Source: Azolla caroliniana
Lineage: Eukaryota > Plantae > Polypodiophyta
Length of the DNA stretch: 64,000 bases
Reading direction: 5' to 3'
NCBI GenBank assembly: GCA_043228905.1
Contig: JBHGNT010000012.1
Location: forward strand, 20,584,001-20,648,000
A program made the translations under genes and the position numbers. The notes beneath the pieces were generated by a model. That model saw nothing but the letters and a program-made list of their open reading frames with translations, was not told the origin of the DNA and made no database searches. Below are positions 5,083-64,000 of this stretch, one piece after another. The stretch's first letter is position 1; every line of letters begins with the position of its first letter.

Positions 5083-8000
5083 GTGGGCACAAGTACAACA
5101 ACTTGTACCCAATGATGGCGATCAATCCAAAAGGGGCCATAAATGTAGCCAAAAAGGCCTACCTGAACTTATGGCATGGCCGGCTCGGCCATATGTCTCA
5201 AGCTGGACTCGATCGGCTGATGGCGGTCGGCTACATCCTGAAACTTCAAGCAAAGACGGACTTCTGCGAGCATTGTCGATACGGGAAACAGACCCGCAGT
5301 CCGCAATCTCTTCATTATGAGACAATACGTCAGCCCTAGAGCTCATGCACACAAATATATGTGGGACGATGCCCGAAAGATCTCTAGGGGGCTCCCAGTA
5401 GTTAATCACATTTGTCTATGATTGGACATGGAAGGTCTACGCCTATACGATTAGGTCGAAAGACGAAGCGCTTGAGATCTTCGCTCGATGGTTAATCAAA
5501 GCGGAGAACCGGTCAGGACATAGAGTGAAGATACTCCATTCCGACAACGGAGGCAAATATACCTCCTGAGCTTTCAAACAGTACTTGTCCCACAAAGGGA
5601 TTTGGCATCAAAAGACCGTTCTACACACCCATGCAAAATGGAGTGGCATAACGGATCGACCGAATGGTTCAAGAGAGGATGACAACAATGCTCCAACAAG
5701 CCAGACTGAAGCTGGAGTTTTGGGCCAAAGCATTGCAGACGACAGTTTACCTGATAAGTCTATTGTCGTCAAAAGCAATCAGGCTCGAAGTGCGAGAAGC
5801 ACTATGGTTAGACAAACAACCAAAGCTTCAAATTTTCGGTTGCGAAGCTTACGCATTCATCCCTCGAGAGAAGAGGACCATGTTGGCTCCCCATGTAACA
5901 AAATCCATATTTCTCGGTTATGGAAGGGATGGGGATTTTGGCTATCACCTATGGGACCCAGAGAATCGGAAATTGATCTGAAGTCGTGACGTCGTCTTCA
6001 ATGAAGACTCTATCCTTTCTAAGCAGAACCAGTAGAACATAGCGGGCAAAAAGGTCTTGTTCAAAATCAACAGAGAAGTCGTAGAAAGACTGACCCATTG
6101 GGCTGAATCGGAGATTCGACAAACAGTCGAAATCGACCAAGCCGACAATACACCTTTTGACTCCAAATTGGTAGGAGGTTCGCTACTCAAACTCGAAGAG
6201 AAAGCCATCAAAGACAAAGCCGAATCGACAAGAGTCCAAAAAGGCAAAGTCGACAAGATGAAAGTCGGAAACAGAGTTGACCCGACTGAGACACCCAAGG
6301 CCAAAGGGAAAAACAAATCAAAGTCATTTAAGTCTCTCCATCTCGAAGAAGGGGAGAATGCGGTGACATCGTCGAAATCCTATCACAGTGGCGAGTCATT
6401 AGAAAGGAGTCTTGACATAAGTGGTTCAACAAATGTCGGGTCAGCCGATAGAGACGATCAAAGGATCCAAACCGATCATTACGACAGTCAGGACATCTGG
6501 ACGAAATCGAAGGCCGACAGAGTTCCGGGCCTCGACTACATCAACTACATGGATGCAGGCGAACTAAGCACATACAAAGAAGCTATACACCCAATGCCAA
6601 AACATGGCTCCAAGCCATGAGATCCAAGATGGACTCGATCAAAGAGAACAATACATGGGAGTTGGTCGAACTACCAACAGGAAGAAAGCCACTACCTTGC
6701 AAATGGGTATTCCAATACAAATATGTATCTGATTCAGAGAAGCCCAAGTACAAAGCTTGGCTCATCACGAAGGGATTCAAACAGGAACACCGGATTGACT
6801 ATGACGAGATATTCTCTCCAGTAGTCAAGATGAACACCCTTTGACTCTTACTCGGGGCCGTGGTGACAGAGGACCTAGAGCTTGAGCAACTCGACGTAAA
6901 GACGACATTCCTACACGGAGGCTTGGAAGAGGACATTTACATGTCCCAACCGGTACGGTTCTTGGTGATGGGGGAGGAAAGTCACCTCATATGTCAATTG
7001 AAGAAAACCCTATATGGCTTAAAACAAGCGCCGAGGATATGGTACCAGAAGTTCGAATCCTACATCCGATAATTTGGTTACAACCAGTCCGACTCCAACC
7101 CATGTTTATACACTCGGAAATTGGCCGATGAGTCTTGAATTTATTTGATCCTATATGTTGACGACATGTTGATTGCAATCAAGTTGAAATCAGAAAGCTA
7201 AAGCAGAGCCTTCACGACAAGTTTGCGATGAAGGAACTTGGACAAGCCCGACATATATTAGGCATGAGGATTGAGCAAAATCGGAAGACGAAGAATCTCT
7301 AATTCTCCTAGTCTGACTACATTCCAAAGGTGTTGAGGCACTTCAATATGGAGAACGTGAAGCAAGCACCAACTCCACTTCCAATGTCGATCCAACTATC
7401 AAACAAAGACTCTCCTTTGATTGATAAGGAGAGAGAGCTAAATGGAAAGATACCCTATGCATCGGCAGTAGGAAGTATCATGTACGCGATGGTGGCGACC
7501 AAACCTGATCTTGCATATGTCATGGGGGTCATCAACCAGTACATGTTGAATCAAGGTTGGAAGCATTGGGAGACCGTCAAACACATTTTAGGGTACCTAA
7601 AAGGAACCGAAGATGCACAATTGATCTTCGGATCGGCAAACCCGACCGTAGTCGAAGGCTACACCGACTCCGATTACACCAAGTTTGGGATAATTGGAAG
7701 TCGACATCAGGCTATATCTTCACCTATAGAGGTGGCAGTGTATCATGGAGGTCAAAGCTCCAAGAGTGCATGGCCCAGTCTACCACAGAGGCCGAGTACA
7801 TAGCCGCGTCGGAGGCAGTGAAGGAAGTGATCTGGCTGCACCAACTAACTGCCAATGTTTTGGCTACAAGCCAAATCGATCGACAAGTGCTAACCATCTA
7901 TTGCGACTCACAAAGCGCAATACACCTCATCAACAACCTTGTCTATCACATGAGGAAAAAGCATATTGAGGTGCAGTATCATCACATCTAGGAGCTGATA

Positions 8001-8127
8001 ATTGAAAAGAAGCTTGAAGTCCGAAAGATCGACACTGAGGTGAACATCGTCGATTGCCTAACGAAACCACTCCCAGATCAACACTTCGGAACAAGGAGGA
8101 CCGAGCAAAAGAAAGCCGAACGAGGAG
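5083..8127 (+). pseudogene. Decayed Ty1/copia pol (GAG-pre-integrase, integrase, RT, RNase H)
   Basis: LWHGRLGHMS..CEHC, FGCEAY, NNTWELVELP..CKWV, QLDVKTTFLHG, LYGLKQAPR, STTEAEYIA. Many stops and frameshifts. Confidence 0.9.
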
Positions 8128-8673
8128 TCATTCTACACTTAGTTGCCACTACTGTTCGGTTGTGGATTGTTGCCACTATTCGATCCGATGGAGTTCACTC
8201 CTCCTCCACTTCCGCCATTCTACACTTAGTTCCCGCCACTATGCGTTCCAAGCATCATTTGCCACTGTTCGATCTGAAGGAGTTCACTCCTCCATTGCCA
8301 CCATTCTACACTCAGTTGTCGCCATTGTTCGGTCCTAGATTGCAATAACTATTTGATCCGATGGAGTTCACTCGTCCATTGCCACCATTCTACACTCAGT
8401 TGCTGCCAATGTTCGATTCTGGATTGCAATAATTGTTCCTTTGTTGATTATCTTGTGTATTGTTGTGTATAATCTTGTGTATTGAGGAATAATTTTGTGT
8501 ATTGTTGTTGCCCATAGTCATCTTAGCTCGTTCCCGACGGTGGTTGAGTAGCTTTCACTCCGCTGCAACAAACATAAACTTACCAATGGTGGGATCGCTC
8601 TTGTGAATCACCTGTTTGCATGTGGTTTAGTAACTAGCTACGTGTCTTTTTTTGTGGAAATTTACTAATGAAT

Positions 8674-8935
8674 ATGTCAAGCCAAATGGAAGGGGAATGA
8701 GGATGTTTTCCAATACCCCTCATGGATCATTAGGATAGGGATGACGCTACCAGGACACAACAAGTGATACGAAAGTATTGGGAAGAAAAAAAAGGAAACA
8801 TCGTCAATTGTTGAAGGATACGAAAGCCACATTCACTAAAAGTAAGGATAGTATTGGTTGCGATATAGGTCTAAGTAGCGTACATGCACTCTCATTTGGT
8901 TAGGTGCATCAACGCCTCGATGTCGCAATACAATA
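8674..8935 (+). pseudogene. Transposase remnant of copy A (N-terminus, then an internal deletion)
   Basis: ATGTCAAGCCAAATGGAAGGGG...AGTAAGGATAGT aligns with the start of the 62709 ORF (MSNQMEGEEG...KGKDS). The sequence after ~8853 is absent from copy B and may be the C-terminus (inference). Confidence 0.7.
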
Positions 8936-9540
8936 GCTACTCATATTTATACACAATTAGTGCTAATGTGTATGGAATTTGTAGCTACAAGGAGATCATA
9001 CCAATTTTCTTGTAAAACAAGCAAACCACATGTATTGCAAAAAAACAGTTTAATAAAATCGTTTGGGAGACTATCTTCTTTCTTATATATAGTTTTCTTT
9101 CTGTTCTTGTTTCTTAATAAAATCATTTGGGAGTCTTCTTTTTGATATACAGTCTTCTTTTTGTTCTTCTTTCTTAATAAAATCATGTGTCTTTTTTATA
9201 TGCAATCTTGTTTCTGTTCTTCTTTCTTACAAAACAGTTTAATAAAATCGTTTGGGAGTCTTCTTTCTAATATATAGTTATACTTATTGCAACTTTCCGT
9301 CTTAGTGTCTGTTCAATGTGCATAATGACGATTATGTTGTTTGGAATACATTTTCGCAATGGTTTTATTACTCTCAAGTGAACCATGTACAAGTTCAAAC
9401 AGTTTGCCTAATTCGAAGAAAAAGCAACAAAATGGAATCAGAAATCGTGTACCTACTCTTAAAATTACATTGTAGATAATTTTTACTCAAAACAAGCGAT
9501 TTAATTCTTCATTCATTAATCTGTCATCAAATTACATATT

Positions 9541-10556
9541 TATAATACACCATTGGCAATGTCTACAAAGCGCCTATAAACAACTAAGCTCTTGCTAGTC
9601 AGTGGAACTTCGCTACATATATGATCTGCATACCGAGCTTGGTATGGAGTCCACAACCATACAATTAGTTGGCAGCTCAATGTTTTCACCAAGTAGTTAT
9701 CAAGCATTTCCTCGGGTACAATGAGACAACATCTGCAAAGGTTGAAGTATTGCCGGAAATGTTATGTATCCACGATCAACGTATTGTCGGCATTATATTT
9801 GGGCCAAGTATCCCGAAAATTAGAGTCTTTTGAATCTTGCATTATCCTTCTGCTCACATTTTTCTCGTGTCCACTGACCCTTGAAATGTTGTCGCCACTT
9901 CGGGAAGAATCTTTCAACACACTTCCACACATTTAAACGTGGGTTTTCACTCCAAATAAACAAATCAAAGTATTGCACAACCCACTCTAGAAATTGATTC
10001 GCGTCCCTCCTTGGCTGCATATATCGCACACTCATCAGGACTTTATCAAGCTCCAATATCAAGGCACTTCTTTTGTGTTCTAATGGTTTAGGTTTCCATT
10101 CTTGCAACGAAGCTTGTGTTACACCAAGTATTGGTAGCACACGATCAATTTCAATCAACTCAGGTTCTGTCGAAACAATTGGTGTCCTTTTCTTCTTCAA
10201 ACCCCTAGTCAACTATATCGTTGGGTCTGGCTTCACCTTGTATTGCTATTGTGCAGTCATTGGGTCTGGCTTCACACTGTTTTGCTCTTGTATAGTCGAT
10301 TGTGTAATCAGTCCTAGCATTACCTCTGTGCATGTAGATACTTCTCTGGTCGATATCAACCCACTTGTATCATGTGCTACATCTACCTGTAAAATCAGAT
10401 CATCTGTGCAACATGCTTGATCTACTTGCGTGACAAGATCATTTGTGTCAGTTGCTACATCTACTTTCAAAATGGGGCTCTCTAAACATGTAGCAAAATC
10501 AACAGTTTCCACAGTGCCATCAGCCTTAGGAGCAATAGATTCAAACCCTTTACACT
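9541..10556 (-). pseudogene. Cargo exon encoding a NIF/FCP1-homology (HAD-fold) phosphatase-like domain
   Basis: KRSALILELDKVL..RRDANQFLEWVVQYFDLFIWS..FKGQWTREKC..WPKYNADNTLIVDT matches the NIF pattern LVLDLDxTL..RPxxxxFL..FxxxxWS..NTLLxDD. Acceptor ttgcag lies at 10557-10562. Stops and one frameshift are present. Confidence 0.65.
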
Positions 10557-10799
10557 CTGCAACATAAGAAAACACCAACATATTCACACTCACAAAGTAG
10601 CTAATAGTCTCACAAAACAACATAATGAACATAAAATATTCTGCAACAAAATAATAATATTATCTTAATATCCATCATAGAGTTCCATTACATAATATGG
10701 ATCAAGCAACAACCAATCTAAGGTTTTACTTGTCCAAATAGATCATAGAAAATCTTCATAATTTTCTAGGAAAATAACCAACAATCATATCCCACTAAT

Positions 10800-13219
10800 C
10801 AGTAATTGGCAGTAATTAGCTCCAATTCAAGAGCCCCTTCACTGAGTAATTGTTCTTGTCCTCAATTGTGGCCCCTTCTTTAGCCTTTTTCTAGCCGGTT
10901 GCCCATTTAGTCCTACTTCTTTCACCCATTGTGCAAGTGTGTCCTCCTCCGACAACCTTTCTATCACCTCAACAACAGCTTGCACGCCAGTCGCGTCTTG
11001 CACTAGCTTTTCAAGTACAGTGGGATCTGGTGGGACATCATCAGCAATTGAGCTCAGTGGGGTTGAATCAAGCATTGTAGCTAATTAGCTGATACACTAT
11101 AGGCTGGCAGTAGCTAATTAGCCACTACACTTTATACCGCTTTGCTAATTACCTACGTTGTAGCTAATTAGCTACGACACTACTGAACCATAACAACTAA
11201 ATAGCTACCACACTTTATACAACTTAGCTAATTAGCTAAGATGTAACTAATTATCTACTACATTATAAAGACAAGCAACAATTTTACCTATCAGTTTTCT
11301 GCACTCATTTGGGAGAGTTGTATTGCAATCCCCCAAACAGACTACAGCAATGCAACAGGCATATTGAAAACAAACGATATGGTATGTGTGCTAGCAAGGT
11401 CGTAGGTATACCAACAAAGTAGCAACTTTGTCCTCTACGCCTAAGCTGCAAGCGATGCAACGTGCTTGAACAGTCAATATATTGTTGCATGGTTCTCCTT
11501 CGTTTGGTAAGGAAGCAAGAATGTTGAGGTCCAATTCTTGTGTACTCCCTACCATCCCCTCTTCAAAATGTAGTTGCATCTTAAGGCAGCTAAGTACCTG
11601 TTCTTGACGGGAGTATTGTTTTTAGAACACATGCGAGAAATTTACCGATTTATCATACTTTAATGAGGAAGGTAGAACAACAAGAAACAAGAATCATTAA
11701 CTTACTTGGAGGTTCTCCAAATTGTAATCAGCGATAGTATTTACACCTAGAAGGTTCAAGTTCATTAAAAGAACCTAAATCTTTGTCTGTAGTTGTATTT
11801 TCCAATGGCGATCCAACGGACCCTCAATTTCGAGCTCATATTGAGCAACCTATTCCACATAATGCCTCACTAAGCACATTTTCATGTACAAGTTATTTAT
11901 AACATGTTACATACTAGCAAAACAATAGCTACCTGAATCTTATTTATTATTGTTATCACTACCAAAGTGACTTTGCTCACCATCACAGTTGCCAATGTTG
12001 CTTTCTCTAAATCAGTCTTTGTTGCCTCCAATGTCTCACAGGCTTCATGGACATTTTTCAACATATAGCTAATCAATGTCTCACCTGTGTCATCGACATT
12101 GGCTTTCATTGTGTTTCGGTGTGGTGTATACTTGCGGGTTTGTTGGGGGTCGGCAGTTGCATCATCTACCGATGCCTCATCATAAATAGCCCTAGCCACC
12201 TTGTACATTTCAGGGTCTGTTGATTCCTTCGTTGTTTTGCAATACTCATATGCAAAAGCTCTAGCGAATGCAATAGACAACTTGTTGTTGACCGGGATCT
12301 CTTGATTTACTTTCTGGTGGAGCCTTATACAATCGTCAGACAACTCCGATCGTACATGCTTGAGCTTCACCTTGCCTTTCACTCTCGGCACTTTATAGAT
12401 TGACGACCAGTCTACATCACTAATCAATTTATCTGTTAGAACAACAATGTCAATACCCTCTAGCGACAGAACATATATGTTGTTAAAGTTCTCCTTTGTC
12501 TCACAAAACTTTGCAAAGTTTAGCACTCTAGGATATGGAGGGACGAGCCACCTGAAATAAAAAATCAATATATGTTACCTCTGCTCTACTCAGACATGTG
12601 TATTTAGAACCGTAATTGGTAGGGAAGAATCAAAAACAAAAAATCAGCCACATTCACCCAAATCCTAAATCAAGTTTGGGGGAAGTTTGTAAACACATAA
12701 CCATTGAAATCAGAAATGTGAATTGGTACAAAATTCCAACACTAAATCTAAAAATTTTAACAGTAATAAAAAATCAACTGCTTAAAAAAGCAGAAACCCT
12801 ATTTAGAAGCCTTAATCTAAAACCCTAATCAGAAATCAGCCGCTTAAGGAAATCAAAAACCCTAATCTGAAATATGTATGAAATCAACCCTAATCATAAT
12901 TGGTAGGGAAGAATCAAAAATAAAAAATCAGCCACATTCATCCAAATCCTAAATCAAGTTTGGGGGAAGTTTGCGGACACAACCATTGAAATAAAAAATG
13001 TGAATTGGTGCAAAATTCCAAAACTTAATCTAAAATTTTCAACAGTAATAAAAAATCAACCACTTAAAAAATCAGAAACCTTAAAAAGAAACCCTAATCA
13101 GAAATCAACCGCTTAAGGAAATCAGAAACCCTAATTTGAAATATGTATGAAATCAACCCTAATCAGATTTTTTGTCAATCAGAAACACACCTGTTGTTAC
13201 ACCCCGATCTTCGAGACAT
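10800..13219 (-). pseudogene. Cargo gene of copy A (unknown domain + RING-like), spliced and decayed
   Basis: MSRRSGCNNR|WLVPPYPRVLNFAKFC... has the same exon and intron positions as the 55612-59539 gene. CIAC..PC.H remnant at ~11340-11460. Confidence 0.75.
12555..13190. repeat. Intronic AAACCCTAAT (telo-box-like) repeats with a ~284-bp tandem duplication
   Basis: Recurrent gaaaccctaatc; the block taattggtagggaagaatcaaaa starts at ~12613 and again at ~12897. Confidence 0.7.
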
Positions 13220-14599
13220 CCTTGTTTGGGACTCCAATGACTTCGTCGTAATCGTTTTTTATAAAAGATGAACAAGCAACAAAGTTATCGTTATTAGAAA
13301 GGAAATTAATTAATTAATTAATGTGTAACTGATACATACCTGGACGAGGATCGAACTGGTGGTGTGTTGTAGCTCTGAAGGTGCAATGTCGATATCAAAG
13401 ATTTTGTGCTGCTGCGGAAGCTTTGTCTATGTTTGTGCTCAAAGTACTCTATCTGTTTGGATTTCGAACTCAAACTGAGGATTAACAGGAATTTGGTGAC
13501 ATTCAAGTCGAGTTTAGATGAGGGCACTGTTCCCCAAGTTCCACTACGTCAAAAACCAAAGTTCAAATTTTAATCAATAAAGCATAAAATTTATTAATAA
13601 AGCATAAAATTTTGTAAATGATCCTTATGATTTGCCCACAAAAAACGAGCTAAATAGCTATGGCCATTTTAGCAGCTAATTAGCTATAATAGTGTTTCCA
13701 CTCGCATGCTTTTACCCCCCTACCTCTTGGGATCAAGGAGTCGTCCTCCTTGTAGCCTATCCACTTCTCTGTTGTCGACCTTTGATTAGCAACTACCCCA
13801 AGCAATAGAGTATTCATAATTCAGATCTCACAATCCATCCGCCCCTAATTTTGTGGAGTATATTGGCTTGATCTTGTAGTGGCAATGACATAAACCGTCT
13901 CCAACTAAACCACACAAATTTTCCTTTTTTCTAGTACCATAATATATTAATTCTTGAAGATCTCTCTATGTTGAGCCTGATTGAGCACCCATATTTTGTA
14001 TCACCTTCAACTCCTCCTTTGACAACCATTTGTTAAGTTCTTAATTGTTAAAGCAATCCAATTACATATATGATGTTGAAATGGAAGAGAAGTTATTCTT
14101 TGGCACATTTTCTTTTGAACATGCTACCTCCAAATTAGCAATAGTTTGTTGTGTTTTAGATTCTATTATTGCTATTAAATTCAACAATACTTACTTGTAG
14201 TTATATGAAAGTGTCACCTTTACATCAAAGATGACAATAACTTTTCATGCTTCATATCCAAGATTTCGACTTGAGAGGTTCCCTAATACTTAAATTGTTT
14301 GTACTTGAGAAGCCTCTATGGTATGTTCGTTGGTGATGGGTAAAGTATTATTCGTCAACCTCTTTGTGACCTTGACATGCATATGCAAATCTATGTGCAA
14401 ACATCGTCCAAACTTCAATGTTTATGATTTGTTGCATATTATACAATTTTTTGAAAGTGTGTTGTAGCTCCTTTAAATTGCTTATGTGAAATTAGCTCCT
14501 TGTTTTTTACTTTAATAACTCTCATGTTTCATCATCCATTCTTTTAGTTATTCATAGTTGTCAAAATGTGCACGAGTGAAAAAAAACTTTTTTACCTCG

Positions 14600-17500
14600 A
14601 TGAACCTTACCAAAAGTATCAGGAAGTCACCTCCGTCAAATTTCTTCACGAATACACAGTGGTCGGCCTACATCTTGTGGTATCCCTGATCAGTCATGAA
14701 GGAGTCGAACTTCCGGTACCATTGCCGGGGAGCTTGCTTCAGTCCAGATAAGCTCTTCTTCAACTGGCACACCAAGTGCTCCTTCCCTTTCTTGACAAAC
14801 CCCTCTGGCTATTGCATGTAGATCTCTTCTTCGAGGTGACCGTGCAGGAACGCCATCTTGACGTCTAGGTGCTCGACCTCGAGGTCCATGCTTGCCGTTA
14901 TGCTCAACACAGTTCGGATTGATGTCATCTTTACTACCGGGGCAAAGATCTCATCAAAGTCCACTCCCTTCTTCTGCTGGAAATCCTTCACCATGATCCA
15001 GGCTTTGTATCTCGGTGGATTTCTGGTGTCTCCCTGTTTCAGTTTGTACACCCACTTCTTCCGGAGCGCACTCTTTCCTTTCGGCAGCTCCATTAGTTCA
15101 TATGTGTGGTTCTCATGCAAGGAATGCATCTCATCCTACATGGCACTCAACCATTTGCGGTTGTGATTGTCTTTCATTGCTTCTTCGAAGCTTTCTGGCT
15201 CCCCTTCTTCAGTTAGTAAAACGTGCTCTGCATCCGGAAATCTCAGGGGGGCCTTTCTCTCTCTAAGAGCATATCTCCGAACTTGGTTTCCGACCACCGG
15301 CTTCTCCGTCTGTTCTTCATCCAAATCCGATTAGGGGTCCTGTCTTATTCGGGTGTCCAATTCGTCTTCGCTCGGTCCGGTTTCTTGTTTGAATCTAGTC
15401 GGTTCATCATGGTCTTCAGCTGATATCCAGCTTCCGATAGGATGTATCCTTGCATCTTGCACCCAATCTTTATCAGTCAACCCGGAGTTCACTATCTTCT
15501 TCTCCGACTCCCAGTCGGCAATGGTCTCGACTCCGGAAAACCTTCTTGTTGACCAAGTCTCACACTCGGTAGCCGAACTCATCATCATTATTTCCAAGGA
15601 ATATGTATGGACAGAACTTCGGATCCAATTTCACTCTCTTGTCCTTTGCAACATGCACGTCAGCAAGACAACTGAACACCTTCAGATGCCGGTAAGACAC
15701 ATCTTTACCGGTCCATACTCTCTATGGTATGTCTCCGTCCAAGGGTGCTAAGGATGATCGATTTATCACATAGGTCATCGTCATCAGCACCTCATCCCAA
15801 AACTTCTTGGACAACTTAGCATGTGCCAGCATGCTCTGGACTCTCTCCATCACAGTCTAGTTCATCCTTTCAGCCAATCCATTCAACTCCGGTGTCTTCG
15901 GCACGATAAATTCAAGCCAGATTCCCTTCAACCGGCAGTACTCCTTGAACTACCCCTGGTATTCGCCTTCGTTGTTTGCTCGAACCGCCTTCAGCTTTCA
16001 GACAGTTTCTCTTTCCACTCTCGCGTGGAACTCCTTGAAGACAATTACTACCTAATCCTTCGTCTTCAATGGTGAGACCCACAACTTCCGGTTGTGATCA
16101 TCTATGAACTTCACGAAGTACTGCAATCCGGCATCTGACTTCGTGTCCACTTGGCATACATCGGTACGCACAAGTTCCAGCGGTGCATTCCATCTCATCA
16201 ATGGTCTTGTTCGAAAGGAGGTTTGGTTTTGCTTGCCGGCCAAGCAGTCAGTGCATCTCTCAAGATACACGTCTTTCACCTCCGGAATGAGGTCGTCCTC
16301 GGCAAGTCTCCGCATTCCCATCTAGCTCATGTGAAACAACCTCTTATGCCATAGCTCACCGGCAGTGTCTCCTGGCAAATCCGGGCATGCATTAGGTACA
16401 TAGTGTTGATCTTCCGGGATGGGCCATGATCAGGCTTCCTTTGCTGAACTTCATGACTCCATTTCGGATGCTACTTGTGTAGCCTTCATCATCCAATTGA
16501 CTAGCTGATATTAGGTTCAACCGAACCTCCGGAACGTGTCGAACATCTTTCAACAACAATTTGCACTCGGTTGACGTCGTCAACCACACATCTCCTATGC
16601 CGACAATTCAACATGCACCTTCATTTCCCATCCGGACATACTCGTGATCTCCGGCTCTATACAATGAGAAGCATTTCTGATCGAGGGCTAGATGGAACGA
16701 CGCTCCGGAGTTTACCACCCATGTCGTCTTGTCGTTGTTAAGGTGCAGCTCATTTTCATCGCAGATGAGAAGCAATTCTTTTTCACTTGTCACGATTACC
16801 GACGTTCCTTTTCAATCTGAACTTCTCCGGTTCGGGCCCTTCTTTGAGTTGGCATTGTCGGTTCCTTTCTCTTTCTAGAAGTGTTGGCAATTCTTTTGGA
16901 AGTGCCTCGGCTTCCCATAGTAGAAGCACATAGGCCTTCCCCTTGACTTTGACCTTGTCCCCGATTTGTCTCGGTTCTGGGGACTCCGATTCCGGCCTCT
17001 TCCCCGGTTATAGTCATCTTCTGTGAACAAGGCCTTCGGATCGGTTCCAGACTCTTGGTCCTTCCGGCGTGCTTCTTCATCTAGCAAGCTTGATTTTACC
17101 CTTGCTAGGGACAGATGTTTTCCTTCCGGCCCGACGATGTCCAAAGTGACAACCAACGTCTCCTAGCTATCTGGAGGGAACCGAGCAAGAGCAATGTGAG
17201 TACCTCGTCGACTAGAGGTACTTCCAACGAGGTTGTTTGGTTTATCAGCCCTTGGAAGGCATTCATGTGCCCCGCCATACTAGATCTATCTTGGTATCAG
17301 AGTCTCACTAACTTCTAGAATACAGAGATCCGATTCACAACATTTTTGCTCTCTAGCATGGTATTGATTTTCTCCCAGAGCACATGAGCCTTACGCTCTT
17401 CATTAAAGTTGTTGTACAAGCTCATGTTGATGAAGCATCGAATGTTTGCCCTCATCTTCATATGCATCACCTCCCAGTTCGCGGCATCGATCTTGTCCGG

Positions 17501-55097: not shown

Positions 55098-55679
55098 TCT
55101 ACCCCCACCTGACCGTGCATTCACCGGTATGCGGGTAAAAGCATGCGAGTGGAAACACTATTATAGCTAATTAGCTACTAAAATGGCCATAGCTAATTAG
55201 CTATTTGTTTAGCTAGTCTTTTTTGTGGGAAAATCAAATATTTGAAAAACTAATTTATGAAAAAACTCAAATATTTGAACTTCTATTTCAGACGTAGTGG
55301 AACTTGGGGAATAGCACCATCATCTAAGGTCGACTTCAATGTCATCAATTTCCTGTTTAGCCTAAGTCTGATTTTGAATGCAGATGGAGTACTCAGAGCA
55401 CGAACGCAGACGTAGCTCCCGCAACAACAGAAAATCGACATTGTAGATTGAGAGCTACAACACAGAACCCGCTCGATCATCGTCCAGGTATGTTTCAGTT
55501 ACAGAAACCCCAAACATTTGTTTTTTCTTTTTTACTATTGTCTGAACTTTGGTGCCGATTCATATTTCCCCAAAATCGAATAGGGCGAAGTCTTTGGAGT
55601 CCCATACAAGGATGTCTCGCAAATCGGGGAGTAGCAACAGGTGTGTTTATATTACTTTTTTTGTGTTTAATCCTGTCTT

Positions 55680-56240
55680 TAGTGATGATTGGGGTTTCTG
55701 ATTGAAATTTCTGATTAGGGTTTTTGTTTATAAATTTCTGATTAGAATTTCTGATTAGGGTTTGTGATTGAAATTTCTGATTAGGGTTTCTGATTAGGGT
55801 TTTTAATTATAAATTTCTAATTAGAATTTCTGAATAGGGTTTCTGGTTACAAATTTTGATTATAGATTAGAATTTCTGAATAGGGTTTTTGTTTATAAAT
55901 TTCTGTTTAGGATTTCTGATTAGGGTTTGTGATTGAAATTTCTGATTAGGGTTTCTAATTTAAATTTTTGATTAGGGTTTTTGATTATAAATTTCTGATT
56001 AGAATTTCTGAATAAGGTTTCTGGTTACAAACTTCTAATTACAGATTTTGATTAGGGTTTCTGATTTCAAACTTCTGATTACATATTTTGATTAGGGTTT
56101 CTGATTTCAAATTTCTGAATACAAATTATGATTAGGGTTTCTGATTTGCTAAGTTAAAGATTTTGCACCATTTTTGTTGTTGTTGATTGGGGTTTCTGAT
56201 TCTCACATATTCTGATTTTGCACTATTTCTGATTTCTGAA
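55680..56240. repeat. Intronic minisatellite of TTCTGATTAGGGTT (telomere/telo-box-like)
   Basis: Many degenerate copies of gattagggtttctg / aaatttctgattag, confined to intron 1 of the cargo gene. Confidence 0.9.
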
Positions 56241-57584
56241 ATGATATTTCAGATGGCTCATTCCTCCGTATACGAGAGTGCTAAACTTCGCAAAATTTTG
56301 TGGGACAAAGGAGGACTTCCACAACACCTATGGTCTGTCACTCGAGGGTGTTGACCCTGCTGTCCTAAGTGATAAATTGATCAGTGATGTAGACTGGATG
56401 ACAGTATATACAGTGCCTAGAGTCAAAGGCAAGGTCAAGCTGAAGCATGTACGAGCCGACTTGTACGATGACTGCATGAGACTGCACCAGAAAGTTCATC
56501 AGGAGATCCCATTCAACAATGAGTTGTCAGTTTCATTTGCTAGAGCATTTGCATATGAGTACTGCAAAACAGCGAAGGAATCCAGAGACCCTGAAATGTG
56601 TAGGGTAGCTTGGGCAGTCTATGGTGAGACATCGGTAAAAAGATGCCGAAAGATGGGGACCTTGGCACAAAAAATAGACAGATTTTGGAGCATGGCAGCT
56701 GTTGATGCAACTACCGACTCCCAGCAAGACCGGGGGCATACACCACACCGACACCCAAGGAAAGCCAATGTCGATGATACAGGTGAGACATTGGTTAGCT
56801 ATATGCTAAAAAATGTCCATGAAGCCTGTGAGACATTGGCATTTTTTAAGACTGATTTAGAGAAAGCCACAATGGCTTCTGCAATGGAGAGCAAAGTTAC
56901 TTCTGTTGTTACAACAATTAGAAATAAGATTCAGGTAACTATTGTTTTGCTGGTATGTGATTGTGTTATAAATAACGGGTAAAATGTGCTAATCAAGCAT
57001 TATCTGGAATAGGTTGCGCAACAGGAGCTTGAATTAGAGGGGCCACTGGATCCCCAACGTAAAATAGAACTGCAAATAGAGATCCCGGTTCTTTCAATGA
57101 ACCTGGACCTTCTAGGTGTAAATACTGTTGCAGATTACAATTTGGATAAGGTTCAAGTAAGTTAACGATTCCTGAGCAAAGTTGGTGTATCTTTCAACAA
57201 CAAGAATAATTAATCGGTAAATTTCTCTGTTGCGTTGAAGGAACAACACATTCATCAAGAACAGGTAGTTAGCTGCCTTAAGAAGCAACTACATTTTGTG
57301 GATGGAATGGTAAGCACTAGACAGGATTTGGACCTGAACATTCTTGCTCCCTTACCAAATGAAGTAGAACCAGAAAATGATTTATTGACAGTTCAAGCAC
57401 GTTGCATCGCTTGCGGGTTAGGTGTGGAGGACAAAACTGCGTCTTTGTTGGTTCACCTACAACCATGCAACCACACATACCATCTGCTTTGTTTTCAACA
57501 TGCCTGTCGAATTGCTGCATTCTGTTTGGGAGATTGCAGTACAGCTCTACCAAATGAGTGGAGAAAACTAACAGGTATACCATA

Positions 57585-58985
57585 CTGTAGCTAATAAGCT
57601 TAGTCTTTTCTAATTAGCTATCCTACTAGCTAATTAGCTACTGGCAGCTAATGAGCTACTAGCTAATTAGCTATGGTACTAGCTAATTAGCTAGTACCAT
57701 AGTTGTGTAAAAAAGCTAATTAGCTATCCTACTAGCTAATTAGCCACTGGCAACTAATTAGCTATCCTAGTAACTAATTAGCTACTACCATAGTTGTGTA
57801 AAGTAGCTAATAAGCTATCCTAGTAGCTAATTAGCTACTAGCAGCTAATTAGCTATCCTAGTAGCTAATTAGCTACTGGCAGCTAATGAGCTACTAGCTA
57901 ATTAGCTATCCTAGTAGCTAATTAGCTATCCTACTAGCTAATTAGCCACTGGCAACTAATTAACTATCCTAGTAACTAATTAGCTACTGTCATAGTTGTG
58001 TAAAGTAGCTAATAAGCTATCCTAGTAGCTAATTAGCTACTGGCAGCTAATTAGCAATCCTAGTAGCTAATTAGCTATGGTACTAGCTAATTAGCTAGTA
58101 CCATAGTTGTGTAAAAAAGCTAATTAGCTATCCTACTAGCTAATTAGCTACTGGCAACTAATTAGCTATCCTACTAGCTAATTAGCTATCCTACTAGCTA
58201 ATTAGCTATCATAGTAGCTAATTAGCTACTGCCATAGTTGTGTAAAGTAGCTAATAAGCTATCCTAGTAGCTAATTAGCTACTGGCAGCTAATTAGCTAT
58301 CCTAGTAGCTAATAAGCTATCCTAGCTACTACATAGTTGAGAAAGTAGCTAATTAGCTTTCATTGTAGCTAATTAGCTATCCTAGCTACTACCATAGTTA
58401 GTAAAGTAGCTAATTAGCTATCCTAGCTACTACCATAGTTAGTAAAGTAGCTAATTAGCTATCCTAGCTACTACTATAGTTGAGTAAAATAGCTAATTAG
58501 CTATCCTAGCTACTACCATAGTTGAGTAAAGTAGCTAATTAGCTACCATAGTAGCTAATTAGCTATCCTAGCTACTACCATAGTTAGTAAAGTAGCTAAT
58601 TAGCTATCCTAGCTACTACCATAGTTGAGTAAAGTAGCTAATTAGCTATCCTAGCTACTACCATAGTTGAGTAAAGTAGCTAATTAGCTACCATAGTAGT
58701 TAATTAGCTATCCTAACTACTACCATAGTTGACTAAAGTAGCTAATAAATTAGCTATCCTAGCTACTACATAGTTGAGAAAGTAGCTAATTAGCTATCCT
58801 AGCTACTACCATAGTTGAGTAAAGTAGCTAATTAGCTATCCTAGCTACTACCATAGTTGAGTAAAGTAGCTAATTAGCTATCGTACTAGCTAATTAGCTA
58901 TCCTAATTAGCTATCATACTAGCTAATTAGCTATCCTAGCTTCTACCATAGTTTAGTAAAGTAGCTAATTAGCTATCCTAAATAG
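57585..58985. repeat. Intronic array of the palindrome TAGCTAATTAGCTA with higher-order units
   Basis: Dozens of copies lie between the donor at 57575 and the acceptor at 59002. ~40-bp units (tcctagctactaccatagttgagtaaagtagctaattagcta) occupy the distal half. Confidence 0.95.
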
Positions 58986-59663
58986 CTGCCATGTTATTGT
59001 AGAATCTGGTGGATTAAGGACGGCACATGATGTGTCTGGTGTTGATGATGCTGCAACAGATGAGGATATTACTGCCAACGTGGCTGAAAGTAAGAGTCCT
59101 GTTATCACATCTCCTTCAGATCAGCTCCACCCTATTCTTTTGGAACAGTGTACTGAATTAGGCAACGATGTGAAATGCCATGAAATAGTGGAAAAAACAT
59201 GTAAAACTGAGGTTCACAACAACAGTGTTTATGAACACTTGATGCAACATTTCTTCGAGTCTGAAGACCTTGATTCAAACCCCACCGAGCCCAACTACTG
59301 AAAATGTCCAAACAGATCACTCTGTACTTGAAAAGCTAGTTCAAGAAACGGCTGATGTGCAATTAGCTGTTGAGGCGATGGGAAGGTTGTCGGAGGAGGA
59401 CACACTTGCGCATTGGGTGAAAGAAGCAAGGCTAAATGGGGAACCAACCAGAAAAAGGCTGAAGAAGGGGCCACGATCGGGAACAAGACCAGTTACTCGG
59501 TCAAGGGGCCCAGACGTAGTGGAGCGAAATACTGTTTAGTTGGATATGATTGCTAGCTTAGGGATTTTGCTAGGGTTTTATGAAGTTTTACTATCCTGTT
59601 GGACAAGTAAAACCTCAGATTGGTTGTTGCTTGATCCACATTATGTAATGGAACTCTATGATG

Positions 59664-62600
59664 TTGCTTGATCAACCTGGAATAACCGCGAACAACATGC
59701 AGAGATCGCAATTCGGGAATTCCTTGGCACTCCCAGGTCTTCTCCCTATTTACTTCATCTATCTTCACTTCCCAAAATTCACGTTTGATATCTCAGACTT
59801 GCGAGGAATAAACACTTGTGGCACTTGTTGACATATTTGTTCTTAAAAATTCAACTACATGTGATGCACAATTCATGTGCACACCATCTGTCTTTAGTTA
59901 TTCATGGGTAAGTGCCCGCTTTATAACAGCCCCTGCACCATCATGTTCACCTTTACCATGGCCAGACCCAAAAAAATTCCATCTCATCTCCAAACCTGTT
60001 ATAGCAGGATACCTCCCCACAAAATAAAATGGACGTCGAGCCTTGAATTGTGACACAGCTCCGTCAGACCAGACCCAATGTTGAGTAAGCTCGAAACGTT
60101 GAGCTAATAACCACTGCCAATGTAACTTAAAACAATGTTGGACGAACAAGGTATCATGCTTCTTATCATCGGAAATAAAGAAATGAATTACTTTTTTAAC
60201 ATCACCTGAAACTCGAAAATATGTTATGTGCACAAAAATGGTTACCTGAACTGAACACCAATGCATAGATTGAATTTCATTCTGTTGCATGAAAGTATAA
60301 TTCTCTGCGAAATCTACTACTGAGACTACTACATCATTTGGGAAATCAGATATGCAAGTCTTAAACTGATGGGCCTGCCATGAATAAATGAAGTTGTGTT
60401 TAATGAACTTTCCTAGAGATACTACAAACAGAGACACCAAATCCCTTGGTTTAAGCATCTTCCGAACTAGATCCTTTCTTTTACACACCTTTCCTTCGAA
60501 ATTGGTGTTCACTGACTCAAATAACTTCACAGAGATCAATATTTCACTACTCAATTCATTTGGACACCACCTAAATCTAGTAGGGCCACAATCTTGACAT
60601 AAACCCATGACACATTTATGAATATGGAAGATAGCGTCAGTTTCTCTCGGACACAATATTGAATCTAATAAATAACTCATGGAAGAGATAACGTGCTTAG
60701 ATGATTTACACTCCTCTTGCGGGCTTGATCGACAGATTGGGCACCCACATGTGCAAACTGTATTAGTTAGGGATGCGCTATGGTGACGTAGTAGATTAAC
60801 AGAGTCCTTCAGAAAACCCATCTGTACATGGTAAATGCAACAACATGTGTATCGATCCTTTAAGCGTCTCACAAAGTGTGGCTTAAGAGACTCGAATGTT
60901 CATAGTTGAACTTTGATAGTTGGATGCATTCGTTTGAACCTAATAAATAAATCGACCTACGTAATAAAGGGGAATTAGTTATTCTCGTAACTAGCTAACT
61001 ATCCTAGTAGCTAATTACCTATTCTAGTAGATAATTAGCTATCATGGTAGCTAATTAGTTGTCCTAGTAGCTAATAAGCTATCATGGCAGCTAATTAGCT
61101 GTCGTAGTAGCTAATTAGTTATCATGGTAGCTAATTAGCTGCTCTAGTAGCTAATTAGCTATCATGGTGGCTAATTAGCTTTCCTAGTAACTAATTAGCT
61201 GCTCTAGTAGCTAATTAGCGGGTCTAGTAGCTAATTAGCGGGTCTAGTAGCTAATTAGCTATCATGGTGGCTAATTAGCTGTCCTAGTAACTAATTAACT
61301 ATCATGGTAGCTAATTAGCTGGTCTAGTAGCTACTTAGCTATAATGGTGGCTAATTAGCTGTCCTAACTAATTAGCTATCATGGTAGCAAATTAGTTGGT
61401 CTAGTAGCTAATTAGCTATCACGGTGGCTAATTAGCTATCCTAGTAAGCTAATTAGCTATCATGGTAGCTAATTAGCTTTCCTAGTAGCTAATTAGCTGG
61501 TAATAACGAAATAGCAAACTAGCTACCAGTACAACTAATTATCTGGTAGTACCTAAATTAGCTATTGAGAATAGCTAATTAGTTATCATGGTAGTAGCTA
61601 TTGAGAGTAGCCAGTTACCTATGTAGTAACTATCATAGTAGCTAATTAGCTATCATGGTAGCTAATTAGCTTTCCTAGTAGCTAATTAGCTGGTAATAAC
61701 GAAATAGCTAACTAGCTACCATGATAGCTAACTAGCTACCAGTACAGCTAATTATCTGGTAGTACCTAAATTAGCTATTGAGAATAGCTAATTAGCTATC
61801 ATGGTAGTAGCTATTGAGAGTAGCCAGTTACCTATGTAGTAGATATCCTAGTAGCTAACTGAGGTAAATGTAACTGATAAGTTAATTAGCTTTTCTGCTA
61901 ACTGAGCTAATTAACTTTCCGAGTAGAGTCAAAACAAATGTTGAGATAAATGTAAATACCTGAGGTACATCAAGAAGATGAATGGGATGCTCCTCGTATT
62001 GATTTCTTCCAACACGTTTCCTGCATAAATCCTTTTTATTGGGTGAAACCCTACTCTCATTAGTCCAAAACATTGTGATTACATCCTTGATTTCAAATGT
62101 TATGGGTGTCATTGGCTTACATCTTGTAGTTAGCTTTAGTAGACTAGTTCCTTCACCCGAGGAAATTATACGGTTCATTGTATTGTACACTGTTTTTCTA
62201 CTAACACCAATTACCTTAGATAGCTCACTGATGTTTATATCGTCAACATCACTATTAAGTAACATCATTAGACTAGACCTTTTTAAGACAAGATCATCTT
62301 CTGACCTGCTCATGGATACGAAACTATTACGAAGATTATTTACTAAAATAGATGATATGTTTGCATTAAGACCATCACAATCAACTAAGTCCTTTATCGA
62401 TGGATCATTACATATTCCATAAAGTACTACCTTCTTTTCTTCATTGCTGATGTGCTTGGTTTGAACATTGAAATAGTCTACAACCTTTCTCTCTATGATG
62501 GTAGTCGCATTACTTACATTCTCAGCTAAACTATCCTTACCTTTACTGAGTGTGGCTTTCGTATCCTTCAACAATTGACGATGTTTCCTTTTTTTTTCTG

Positions 62601-62709
62601 CCCAATAGTTTCGTATGGCTTGTTGTGTCCTGATAACATCATCCCTATCCTTATGATCATTGAGGGGTAATTCTAAACACCCTTCTTCCCCTTCCATTTG
62701 GTTGGACAT
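59664..62709 (-). pseudogene. Sola2-type DDD transposase, 2 coding exons (62709-61960, 60956-~59664), with point stops and a 3' truncation
   Basis: FESLKPHFV..TCCCIYH, VVDFAENY..QNEIQSMHW..QVTIF, ISDDKKHD, WSDGAVSQFK, WNFFGSGHGKGEHDGAGAVIKR. The phase-0 intron splices in frame. Stops at ~60901, ~59899 and ~59794 are consistent with C>T changes. Confidence 0.85.
60985..61915. repeat. TAGCTAATTAGCTA array filling the transposase intron
   Basis: ~20-bp periodic units (gctaattagctatcatggta / gctaattagctg.tctagta) plus a duplicated block (~61450-61630 vs ~61640-61840). Confidence 0.95.
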
Positions 62710-62839
62710 GTTAAAACCCTAAATTTCCAGAAAAAAAAACAAGTATTAAAGATGGCTATGGGCAACAACAATACACAAAAATATTCCACAATACACAAGA
62801 TTAGACACAACAATACACAAGATAATCAATAGACAGAAA

Positions 62840-63530
62840 AGTTATTGCAATCCAAGACCGAACACTAGAGGATTTCACTCCGTTGGATCGAACAGTTGAG
62901 GAGGCGATCCAAGACCGACCAATGGCAACAACTGAGTGTAGAATGTTGCCGTTGGATGAGTGAACTCCGTCAAATCGAAATGTGGAAGCAATCCGGGACT
63001 GGACAGTAGCGGCAACTGAGTATAGAATGATGGCAATGGAGGAGAGAACCCCGTCAGATTGAACAGTTACCGATGATGCTTGGAACGCACATAGAAGGCA
63101 CTTGAGAGTAGAGTGGCACAGAGAAGAGAACCCTGTCAGATTGAACAGTTACCAATGATGCTTGAAAGGCACAGTAGCGGCCCCTGAGTGAGAGTGGAAA
63201 AGAGAAGAGAACCCCGTCAGATTGAATAGCTCTTTGATGATGCTTGGAACGCATAGTAGCGGCCCCTGAGTGTAGAGTGGCAAAGAGAAGAGAACCCCGT
63301 CAGATTGAATAGCTCTTTGATGATGCTTGGAACGCACAGCAACGGCCCCTGAGTGTAGAGTGGCACAGAGAAGAGAACCCCGTCAGATTGAACAACTCTT
63401 TGATGATGCTTGGAATGCACAGTAGTGGCCCCTGAGTGTAGAGTGTCACAGAGAAGAGAACCCCGTCAGATTGAGCAACTCTTTGATGATGCTTGGAATG
63501 CACAGTAGCGGCCCCTCAGTGTAGAGTGGC
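62840..63530. repeat. 83-bp tandem repeat (about 6 good copies plus degenerate ones) upstream of the transposase
   Basis: gagaaccccgtcagattgaa...tgatgatgcttggaa.gcacagtagcggcccctgagtgtagagtggc. The ORF starts recur every 83 nt. A related degenerate array lies at 8128-8430 in copy A. Confidence 0.9.
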
Positions 63531-64000
63531 GGTAGGTGGACTCGATAGGGTTTAGCAACAATGGTAGCAACTAACCCACAGTACTCAACTAGAGATGGCC
63601 TACGTGATGTGGCAAAGGATCATGCATAATAGACCTAGGAATTCGATATATAATTTATGGTACACATTTATGGTGCACACCAATTTATGTTGCACATTTA
63701 TGGCACTCATTTACATATGTAATGAAAACACTCTAGTATTTTCAATGGTAGTTTTTTGCATACTTAATTTATTAATGATGGCTTTTTACTAAAATGACTA
63801 TTTATCAATGGTAGCTTTGTGCATAGCTAATTAGCTATGTCAAGGACATAGCTAATTGTTTCCACTCGCATGCTTTCACCCATGCGCCTAAATAGACTGT
63901 TGCCGGAGAAGACCGGCCCACGCCTACCCTTCGTCCTCCGGATTGCCATTCACCCCGAACCGGTCATCCTCGTGCCGCTTTTTGAACGCTTTGATCCTTT

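Follow-up and report, generated by a model that had tools for sequence, protein, structure and literature searches.

Why should a transposon carry long arrays of its own end motif inside the introns of its genes? The question is raised by a 64,000-nucleotide stretch of DNA from the fern Azolla caroliniana (contig JBHGNT010000012.1 of assembly GCA_043228905.1, positions 20,584,001 to 20,648,000 of the forward strand; hereafter the window), which holds a defective copy of a Sola2 transposon encoding a transposase and, on the opposite strand, a second protein that we call the cargo. The palindrome TAGCTAATTAGCTA lies just inside both terminal inverted repeats (TIRs) of this copy and is repeated at length in one intron of each gene. 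Judging from sequence comparisons, we give roughly an even chance to the reading that these arrays are binding platforms for a protein of the element, most likely the cargo, which would sustain transcription of both genes in spite of CG/CHG methylation by the host.

An end motif in two introns of a Sola2 element

The exact palindrome occurs 40 times in the window, where 100 shuffles give an expectation of 0, and every site falls in one of two related elements, the Sola2 copy and an older relative, copy A; across the remaining 49,629 bases there is no match within 2 mismatches. As the original prediction had it, the motif is exact inside both TIRs of the Sola2 copy (55164, 55190 and 63824), beginning at most 7 bp from each, and the two arrays are bounded by a cargo and a transposase intron, both GT-AG and with the coordinates then given (Table 1). 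The cargo array extends over 57588-58975 of an intron with 1 CG, and the transposase array (61008-61798) contains 5 exact palindromes, 22 with at most 1 mismatch and 32 with at most 2. The right subterminal palindrome and its half site form a larger inverted repeat round a 3-bp loop. The only cytosines of the palindrome are CHH. Helical phasing of the motifs was considered and is not claimed, because spacings of 18, 38 and 29 are present here besides those of 20, 33, 42 and 52-53, and spacings of 18, 41 and 59 occur in a sister family described below.

On its sequence, the element is assigned to Sola2, not to VANDAL or Spm. The translation contains, in a comparison by eye with a published alignment, the Sola2 transposase motifs, namely the catalytic DFAENY, SDG..QFK and HGK..DG.G and the upstream SR..P.KKD and C.C..H (PMC3627910). 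A 4-bp target-site duplication (TSD) is a Sola2 criterion in the same paper, which also gives short TIRs as a Sola2 trait, and it was found in 20 of 20 loci extended from the genome (19 distinct insertions) and in the window copy. No Pfam family matched the transposase, whose named homologues come from ferns, a liverwort and conifers, with distant matches in animals. The short TIRs of Sola2 are said to begin with GRG, a rule reportedly due to Bao et al. 2009, and the 25-bp TIR beginning GGG agrees with it. No description of this element was found in the literature searched, subscription papers and Repbase lying outside that coverage.

The family is young and has intact copies. Of the 40 best matches in the genome we retrieved 38, and 20 of them, which already included one end of the element, were extended; 19 of these loci measure 10.7-12.6 kb and one 9.0 kb, and an 862-863-amino-acid (aa) transposase, spliced at the sites originally predicted, is open in 10 of the 20. 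The terminal 25-mer has 552 exact occurrences in the genome, and the 147 matches scored out of 1400 candidates are all at least 96% identical. The window copy itself has suffered a deletion of ~2.4 kb that took the cargo exon for the NIF domain, a shared 3' region with a motif cluster and the transposase C-terminus. Two of the loci, L020 and L021, are the same insertion with identical flanks, inverted and ~135 kb apart on one contig, which reflects either a duplication or an assembly repeat.

Copy A retains one TIR and the cargo including its NIF exon, with most of the transposase deleted and the far end lost; a copia-like reverse transcriptase, identified by eye, flanks it (7000-8100 and 14600-15000), the former truncating the far end. 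Two earlier statements about copy A need correction: the palindrome at 13673, thought perfect, has one mismatch, and the short array, which is indeed present, is a deletion remnant that lacks the acceptor and ~270 bp and passes directly into sequence matching 59269. We rejected it as an ancestral short state; because the array was cut by a deletion, copy A is no evidence for one.

Table 1. Coordinates in the window of the Sola2 element, its two genes, the motif arrays and copy A
Feature	Position	Strand	Remarks
Sola2 element, defective copy	55133..63881		TIR to TIR
Left TSD, ATGC	55129..55132	+	same as 63882-63885
Left TIR	55133..55157	+	25 bp, begins GGG
Two exact subterminal palindromes, left	55164..55203	.	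starts 55164 and 55190
Cargo exons 1-6	55384..59089	+	55384-55487, 55584-55640, 56253-56934, 57013-57156, 57241-57574, 59003-59089
Cargo intron 2, separate variable array	55641..56252	+	12 x AAACCCTA on minus strand
Cargo N-terminal domain	56254..56721	+	confident model, no fold match
Cargo RING-like zinc finger	57400..57565 (approximate)	+	weak Pfam matches, E 0.096; RING matches in homologues
Cargo intron 5 with palindrome array	57575..59002	+	GT..AG; 30 exact, 44 with <=1 mismatch, 51 with <=2
Deletion junction	59660..59675	.	~2.4 kb lost
Transposase exon 2, catalytic core, truncated	59673..60956	-	TGA 60902-60900
Transposase intron with palindrome array, 20-bp period	60957..61959	-	GT..AG
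Transposase exon 1	61960..62709	-	helix-turn-helix-like stretch, aa 147-185
83-bp tandem array, upstream of transposase	63003..63530	.
Right subterminal palindrome and half site	63824..63857	.	exact 63824, half site 63849
Right TIR	63857..63881	-
Right TSD, ATGC	63882..63885	+
Copy A, older subfamily	8128..13719	-	70-85% identical by segment
Copy A array remnant, deletion-cut	11073..11288	-

Array turnover and a sister family

The copies differ from their majority sequence by a median of 0.14-0.21% in exons, and their array introns range from 733 to 1814 bp in 37 copies and from 976 to 2061 bp in the 27 copies that have both anchors, array length varying more than twofold, with two longer cargo introns of ~2.5 and ~2.8 kb; these copies represent the young part of the family, because they were chosen as best matches. 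Array length differs in 63 of 66 copy pairs that have at most 1 difference in 1190 bp, by a median of 140 bp. At a greater distance, in five relatives with 84-93% nucleotide identity in transposase exon 2 (two of whose arrays are short contig-end fragments), the arrays share 0-3% of their 20-mers with the array of copy L007; the palindrome is their main conserved core, and the spacers have been replaced.

Such rapid turnover could be that of neutral minisatellites, in which the palindrome drives slippage or template switching while the gap left by an excision is repaired, and the lengthening is tolerated within introns. Besides the many near-identical pairs that differ in length, this explanation has on its side the variation of other repeats of the element, including units of 39, 83 and 255 bp and the array of cargo intron 2, the strong folding of the arrays, and the fact that their cores are not over-conserved among new mutations. 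It leaves unexplained why the core persists while the spacers turn over, and it fits poorly with the sister family; we regard it as unlikely, second in rank among the alternatives to the binding platform. Copies have 6-11 units in the 83-bp array. Where the 3' ends of the two genes converge, a 255-bp unit occurs 1-5 times, with a motif cluster in each.

The sister family is represented by a metagenome contig, L070, with 60% amino acid identity to the present family. Its array, in the same intron and 1.19 kb long, contains no AGCTAATTAG, 18 GGTAATTAGTA and 12 CTAATAGTGCT, motifs that are non-palindromic and lie in one orientation. Half sites A[AT]TAGC and A[AT]TAGT number 92 and 8 in the transposase intron of our family, against 2 and 58 in that of L070, and the first 100 bp of L070 contain 0 and 3. 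The end of L070 and its own array share a 14-mer, a length reached in 5 of 1000 shuffles; none of 72 other 100-bp windows exceeds 12 against that array, and the L070 end shares at most 10 with the arrays of our family. The subterminal inverted repeat is altered on both arms, reading TAGTGATGTC..GACATCACTA in L070 versus TAGCTATGTC..GACATAGCTA, and a TAATTA core is common to both families. Thus array and end appear to have changed together. The sister family argues against a neutral palindrome minisatellite and against a role for the arrays as RNA. In L070 (1790-1890) the 3-bp loop of this inverted repeat is reverse-complemented relative to the window family, and a convergent gene at 6960-8892 appears to have repeated small exons. 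Further sister families were sought in own-genome searches with P0003, P0001, P0022 and L070 DNA, which returned this family or nothing, and in viral contigs, which gave none; genome contigs gave 3 distant partial loci.

The RNA role just mentioned would have hairpins supply small-RNA pathways or act on them as decoys, or else restrain splicing. The transcript had been predicted to form many short hairpins, and the arrays do fold strongly (z-scores of -8.0 and -11.0), with long multi-unit stems besides the short hairpins. However, any array of palindromes would fold, and that of L070 does not (z -0.64), so the hairpin is not general; we consider an RNA role very improbable.

The two proteins of the element

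A seven-exon GT-AG model of the cargo gene was tested on 7 full-length copies and is open in 5, giving 807-833 aa, and cargo homologues, those of ferns among them, combine the same domains in one chain; the array intron of this gene is predicted from these two results. The window copy lacks exon 7, with the NIF domain, and has a stop at 55444. In contigs of runs X1-X3, from one study and presumed to be RNA, cargo introns 2 and 3 are spliced, and no contig of presumed-RNA runs covered or bridged the cargo array intron. One contig of X1 joins transposase exon 1 to exon 2 in frame exactly at the predicted sites; X1 is RNA by guess and from a related strain, and the joining contig has 21 letters on its short side. 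The premise that the arrays are spliced out is thereby supported for the transposase array in one contig of a presumed-RNA run, and for the cargo array it comes from the gene model. A longer exon 6, running to a stop near 59538, was discarded as the principal form, because the ratio of nonsynonymous to synonymous substitution rates (dN/dS) in its tail is ~1.

The N-terminal domain of the cargo (~135 aa) has 136 homologues and a confident structural model (predicted local distance difference test score, pLDDT, 93.5). No fold match to it was found in the PDB (Foldseek), by VIA-align (best Z 2.6), in BFVD or in the ESM Atlas (below 0.9), and a PDB sequence search gave coiled-coil matches only; this missing match does not demonstrate a new fold. 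There follow a likely coiled coil, the RING, an acidic linker in which a 13-aa repeat occurs 1-4 times, and the NIF domain, which scores 30.7 bits in Pfam against a cut-off of 21.8 and accounts for 30 of 30 ESM Atlas hits; its single-sequence model (pLDDT 36) is too poor for use. The catalytic motif of FCP1/SCP phosphatases is DxDx(T/V). Since the cargo has ELDKV at this position in L007, and two fern homologues have DLNGV, the NIF phosphatase domain is likely inactive. Cargo dN/dS is 0.14-0.52 in 8 comparisons between subfamilies (N-terminal domain 0.16-0.52, RING 0.27-0.41, NIF 0.14-0.36), values that CG/CHG hypermutation may affect; by this measure the cargo is under purifying selection. 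Adiantum nelumboides is the source of 8 of the 10 cargo homologues looked up. Two fern gene models, P0152 and P0245, fuse the N-terminal domain to a retrotransposon gag and may be mis-joined annotations.

Cargo intron 2 carries 4-12 copies of AAACCCTA per element, a sequence that we take to resemble the plant telo-box, and is a possible second protein-binding array.

Exon 1 of the transposase gives an HTH_11 match (E 5.6e-5, under the curated cut-off) in its helix-turn-helix-like stretch, and the likely recognition helix reads SRKTVYNTM here versus SRKVLYDAI in the sister family.

What the arrays may do, and comparison with known systems

A motif common outside the family had been named beforehand as a finding that would speak against a binding platform. 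Genome-wide, the exact palindrome has 19,622 sites, compared with 11 for a reversed control; of the first 79 listed, 74 belong to five loci of the Sola2 family, one of which was assigned by its coordinates, 5 to four copia long terminal repeats (LTRs) and 0 to sequence outside transposons. The objection thus holds in part: the motif is found beyond its own family, though among these sites only in another transposon, which fits a shared binding protein. The copia family (40 of 40 scored matches, from 1150 candidates) has an LTR of 441 bp with ~4-7 exact or variant motifs clustered ~55-130 bp in, near the 5' end; among 12 LTRs retrieved, only 2 have the exact motif, and the cluster is missing from two further LTRs that share the same start. 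A 37-bp stretch of the LTR matches the Sola2 3' region at 92%, and the likeness of the spacers, reached in 1 of 1000 shuffles, looks like relation by descent. The cluster lies in the predicted promoter of the retrotransposon, where an activator site, rather than a transposase site, could presumably be of use. The copia loci (L061:4640-4790, L062:1703-2143, L063, L066 and L085-L096) fall into two subfamilies with 72% LTR identity and different spacers.

That two unrelated transposon classes share the motif might also mean that it is the site of a host transcription factor, amplified as an enhancer by both. The TAATTA core of both Sola2 families, which may resemble homeodomain sites, would suit such a factor, and so would the array of intron 2 if our telo-box label is right. 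However, the absence of the listed sites from sequence outside transposons, the change of the motif along with the element end, and the apparent common descent of the LTR and Sola2 3' spacers all speak against it, and we rank it third among the alternatives, as improbable.

A second carrier is a 297-bp miniature inverted-repeat transposable element (MITE; 40 of 40 scored matches, from 1090 candidates), which consists of the TIRs and end motifs only and has a TSD in 9 of 10 cases; as it is mobile with no more than the end motifs, cutting does not require the arrays. At its loci (L064:4602-4898 and L097-L106) the left end is a TAGCTATTTAGC variant, found in the LTR too. The MITE bears on the foremost of the rival explanations, in which the motif is the end-binding site of the transposase, and the arrays are a sink or loading zone on autonomous copies, without a role in transcription, that buffers the level of transposase or outcompetes MITEs. 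The motif does stand close to each TIR, both ends of the MITE retain it, the transposase has the helix-turn-helix-like stretch with a likely recognition helix that differs in the sister family, a MITE family exists, and there are ~25 array sites for each end site. Yet a pure sink leaves the LTR cluster and the conserved cargo unexplained, and these two favour activation; moreover, a transposase can itself activate copies (bioRxiv 10.64898/2026.08.24.746577), in which case the sink would merge with the binding platform. We think a sink unlikely, if the least so of the rivals.

As to methylation, transitions per 1000 sites among the copies are mostly 4-24 at CG/CHG, 0.2-2.4 at CHH and 0-0.7 at A/T, a spectrum that is, as far as sequence can tell, the one expected from CG/CHG methylation with little CHH. 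The fern Ceratopteris has hardly any CHH methylation, and its CWA methylation is low (PMC9477723). Array cytosines are 86-91% CHH; for exons the proportion is 68-70% in four cases and 83% in transposase exon 1. Selection may account for the poverty of the arrays in CG/CHG, or it may have arisen passively through decay and amplification.

The arrays, intronic clusters of the motif found at the element's ends, expand and contract rapidly. Under the binding-platform reading, a protein of the element would bind TAGCTA half sites, likely as a dimer, and site density would give specificity, as is reported for VANC and TnpA; introns would let a compact element hold 50-130 sites without harm to its coding sequence. 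Because the only cytosines of the motif are CHH, the sites would stay largely unmethylated, and so readable in a silenced copy. The copia family would likely have borrowed the motif to share the activator.

The original proposal of intronic platforms is strengthened in so far as the motif is kept while spacers turn over and co-changes with the end in the sister family; several results, however, weigh against it: (i) mutation spectra, an indirect test, gave no methylation-free footprint at the arrays. At CHG sites in the spacers of the arrays the mutation rate is 8.5-17 per 1000, similar to that in exons, so that a protected zone cannot be seen; nor is protection consistent in the terminal segments and those flanking the arrays, with one segment at 0 of 592 CHG. 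(ii) New mutations strike motif cores as often as spacers, and tandem growth is general in the element, four other repeats varying in copy number. (iii) The co-variation of array and end motif comes from one sister family, and no NIF match was found in the recovered 3' part of its second gene. (iv) No array was found in five distant loci (32-42% identity), which are decayed or partial. (v) The homology of the LTR spacers is weak, with a masked score of 30 versus 26 for the best array window. (vi) The N-terminal domain of the cargo lacks a known DNA-binding fold whereas the transposase has a helix-turn-helix-like stretch, and the binder may therefore be the transposase.

A more far-reaching version of the binding platform, which we offer as tentative and would not expect to hold in full, is that plant transposons have evolved sequence-specific anti-silencing independently for a third time, here in seed-free plants: the cargo, whose DNA-binding fold would be new and which also has a RING and a dead phosphatase of the type that acts on the carboxy-terminal domain (CTD), would bind methylation-proof arrays and act on RNA polymerase II or on silencing factors by ubiquitin, motif and protein would co-evolve, and the copia LTR would have hijacked the system. 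Sequence-specific counter-silencing is known, in the literature consulted, for Mutator-like and Spm elements of flowering plants. If the present case is true, the strategy evolves repeatedly, in a Sola2 element of a seed-free plant and with an unrelated accessory protein. A young intact family, a candidate site and the natural specificity swap of L070 make binding and retrotransposon hijacking directly testable; if the arrays are neutral, they are an unusually fast minisatellite system inside a transposon.

How does the element compare with those already described? (i) Some Sola2 elements carry a second gene, Fanzor (PMC3627910). Here, unlike in those, the second gene joins the N-terminal domain, coiled coil, RING and NIF, and end-motif arrays lie in introns of both genes. 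The NIF domain is that of FCP1/SCP, but its catalytic motif is altered, and here a transposon encodes it in one protein with a RING. (ii) Sola1-1_Ec32 of Ectocarpus, also a large Sola element, likewise bears an accessory gene and has it on the opposite strand, but it is a Sola1 with a ParB-methyltransferase, and the string 'palindrom' does not occur in the main text of its description (PMC12477816). (iii) The VANDAL elements of Arabidopsis, with their VANC proteins, have short family-specific motifs that are tandem-amplified in introns (PMC5735166, PMC10398659). Shared with them are intron arrays with gain and loss among copies, a motif that differs between related families (here on L070 only), tandem peptide repeats in the accessory protein and an unrelated transposon with the motif, AT9TSD1 in their case. 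VANDALs have a Mutator-like transposase, however, and ours is Sola2. The TIRs of VANDALs are degenerate and the motifs of VANC all point the same way, whereas here the motif is palindromic and is also subterminal, beside intact TIRs. In Pfam the cargo gave only NIF and a weak RING, with no VANC-type family match. (iv) Spm, with TnpA, and AtMu1 have clustered, family-specific and density-dependent motifs, shared with non-autonomous elements, which are terminal, whereas here most sites are intronic (bioRxiv 10.64898/2026.08.24.746577). Here too, motif clusters stand at both termini and are kept by a non-autonomous MITE, and the searches made gave no sign of a transposase origin for the cargo. 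Spm has CACTA ends and a 3-bp TSD, unlike the GGG ends and 4-bp TSD of this element. In its working mode, the Sola2 element of Azolla likely resembles VANDAL and Spm.

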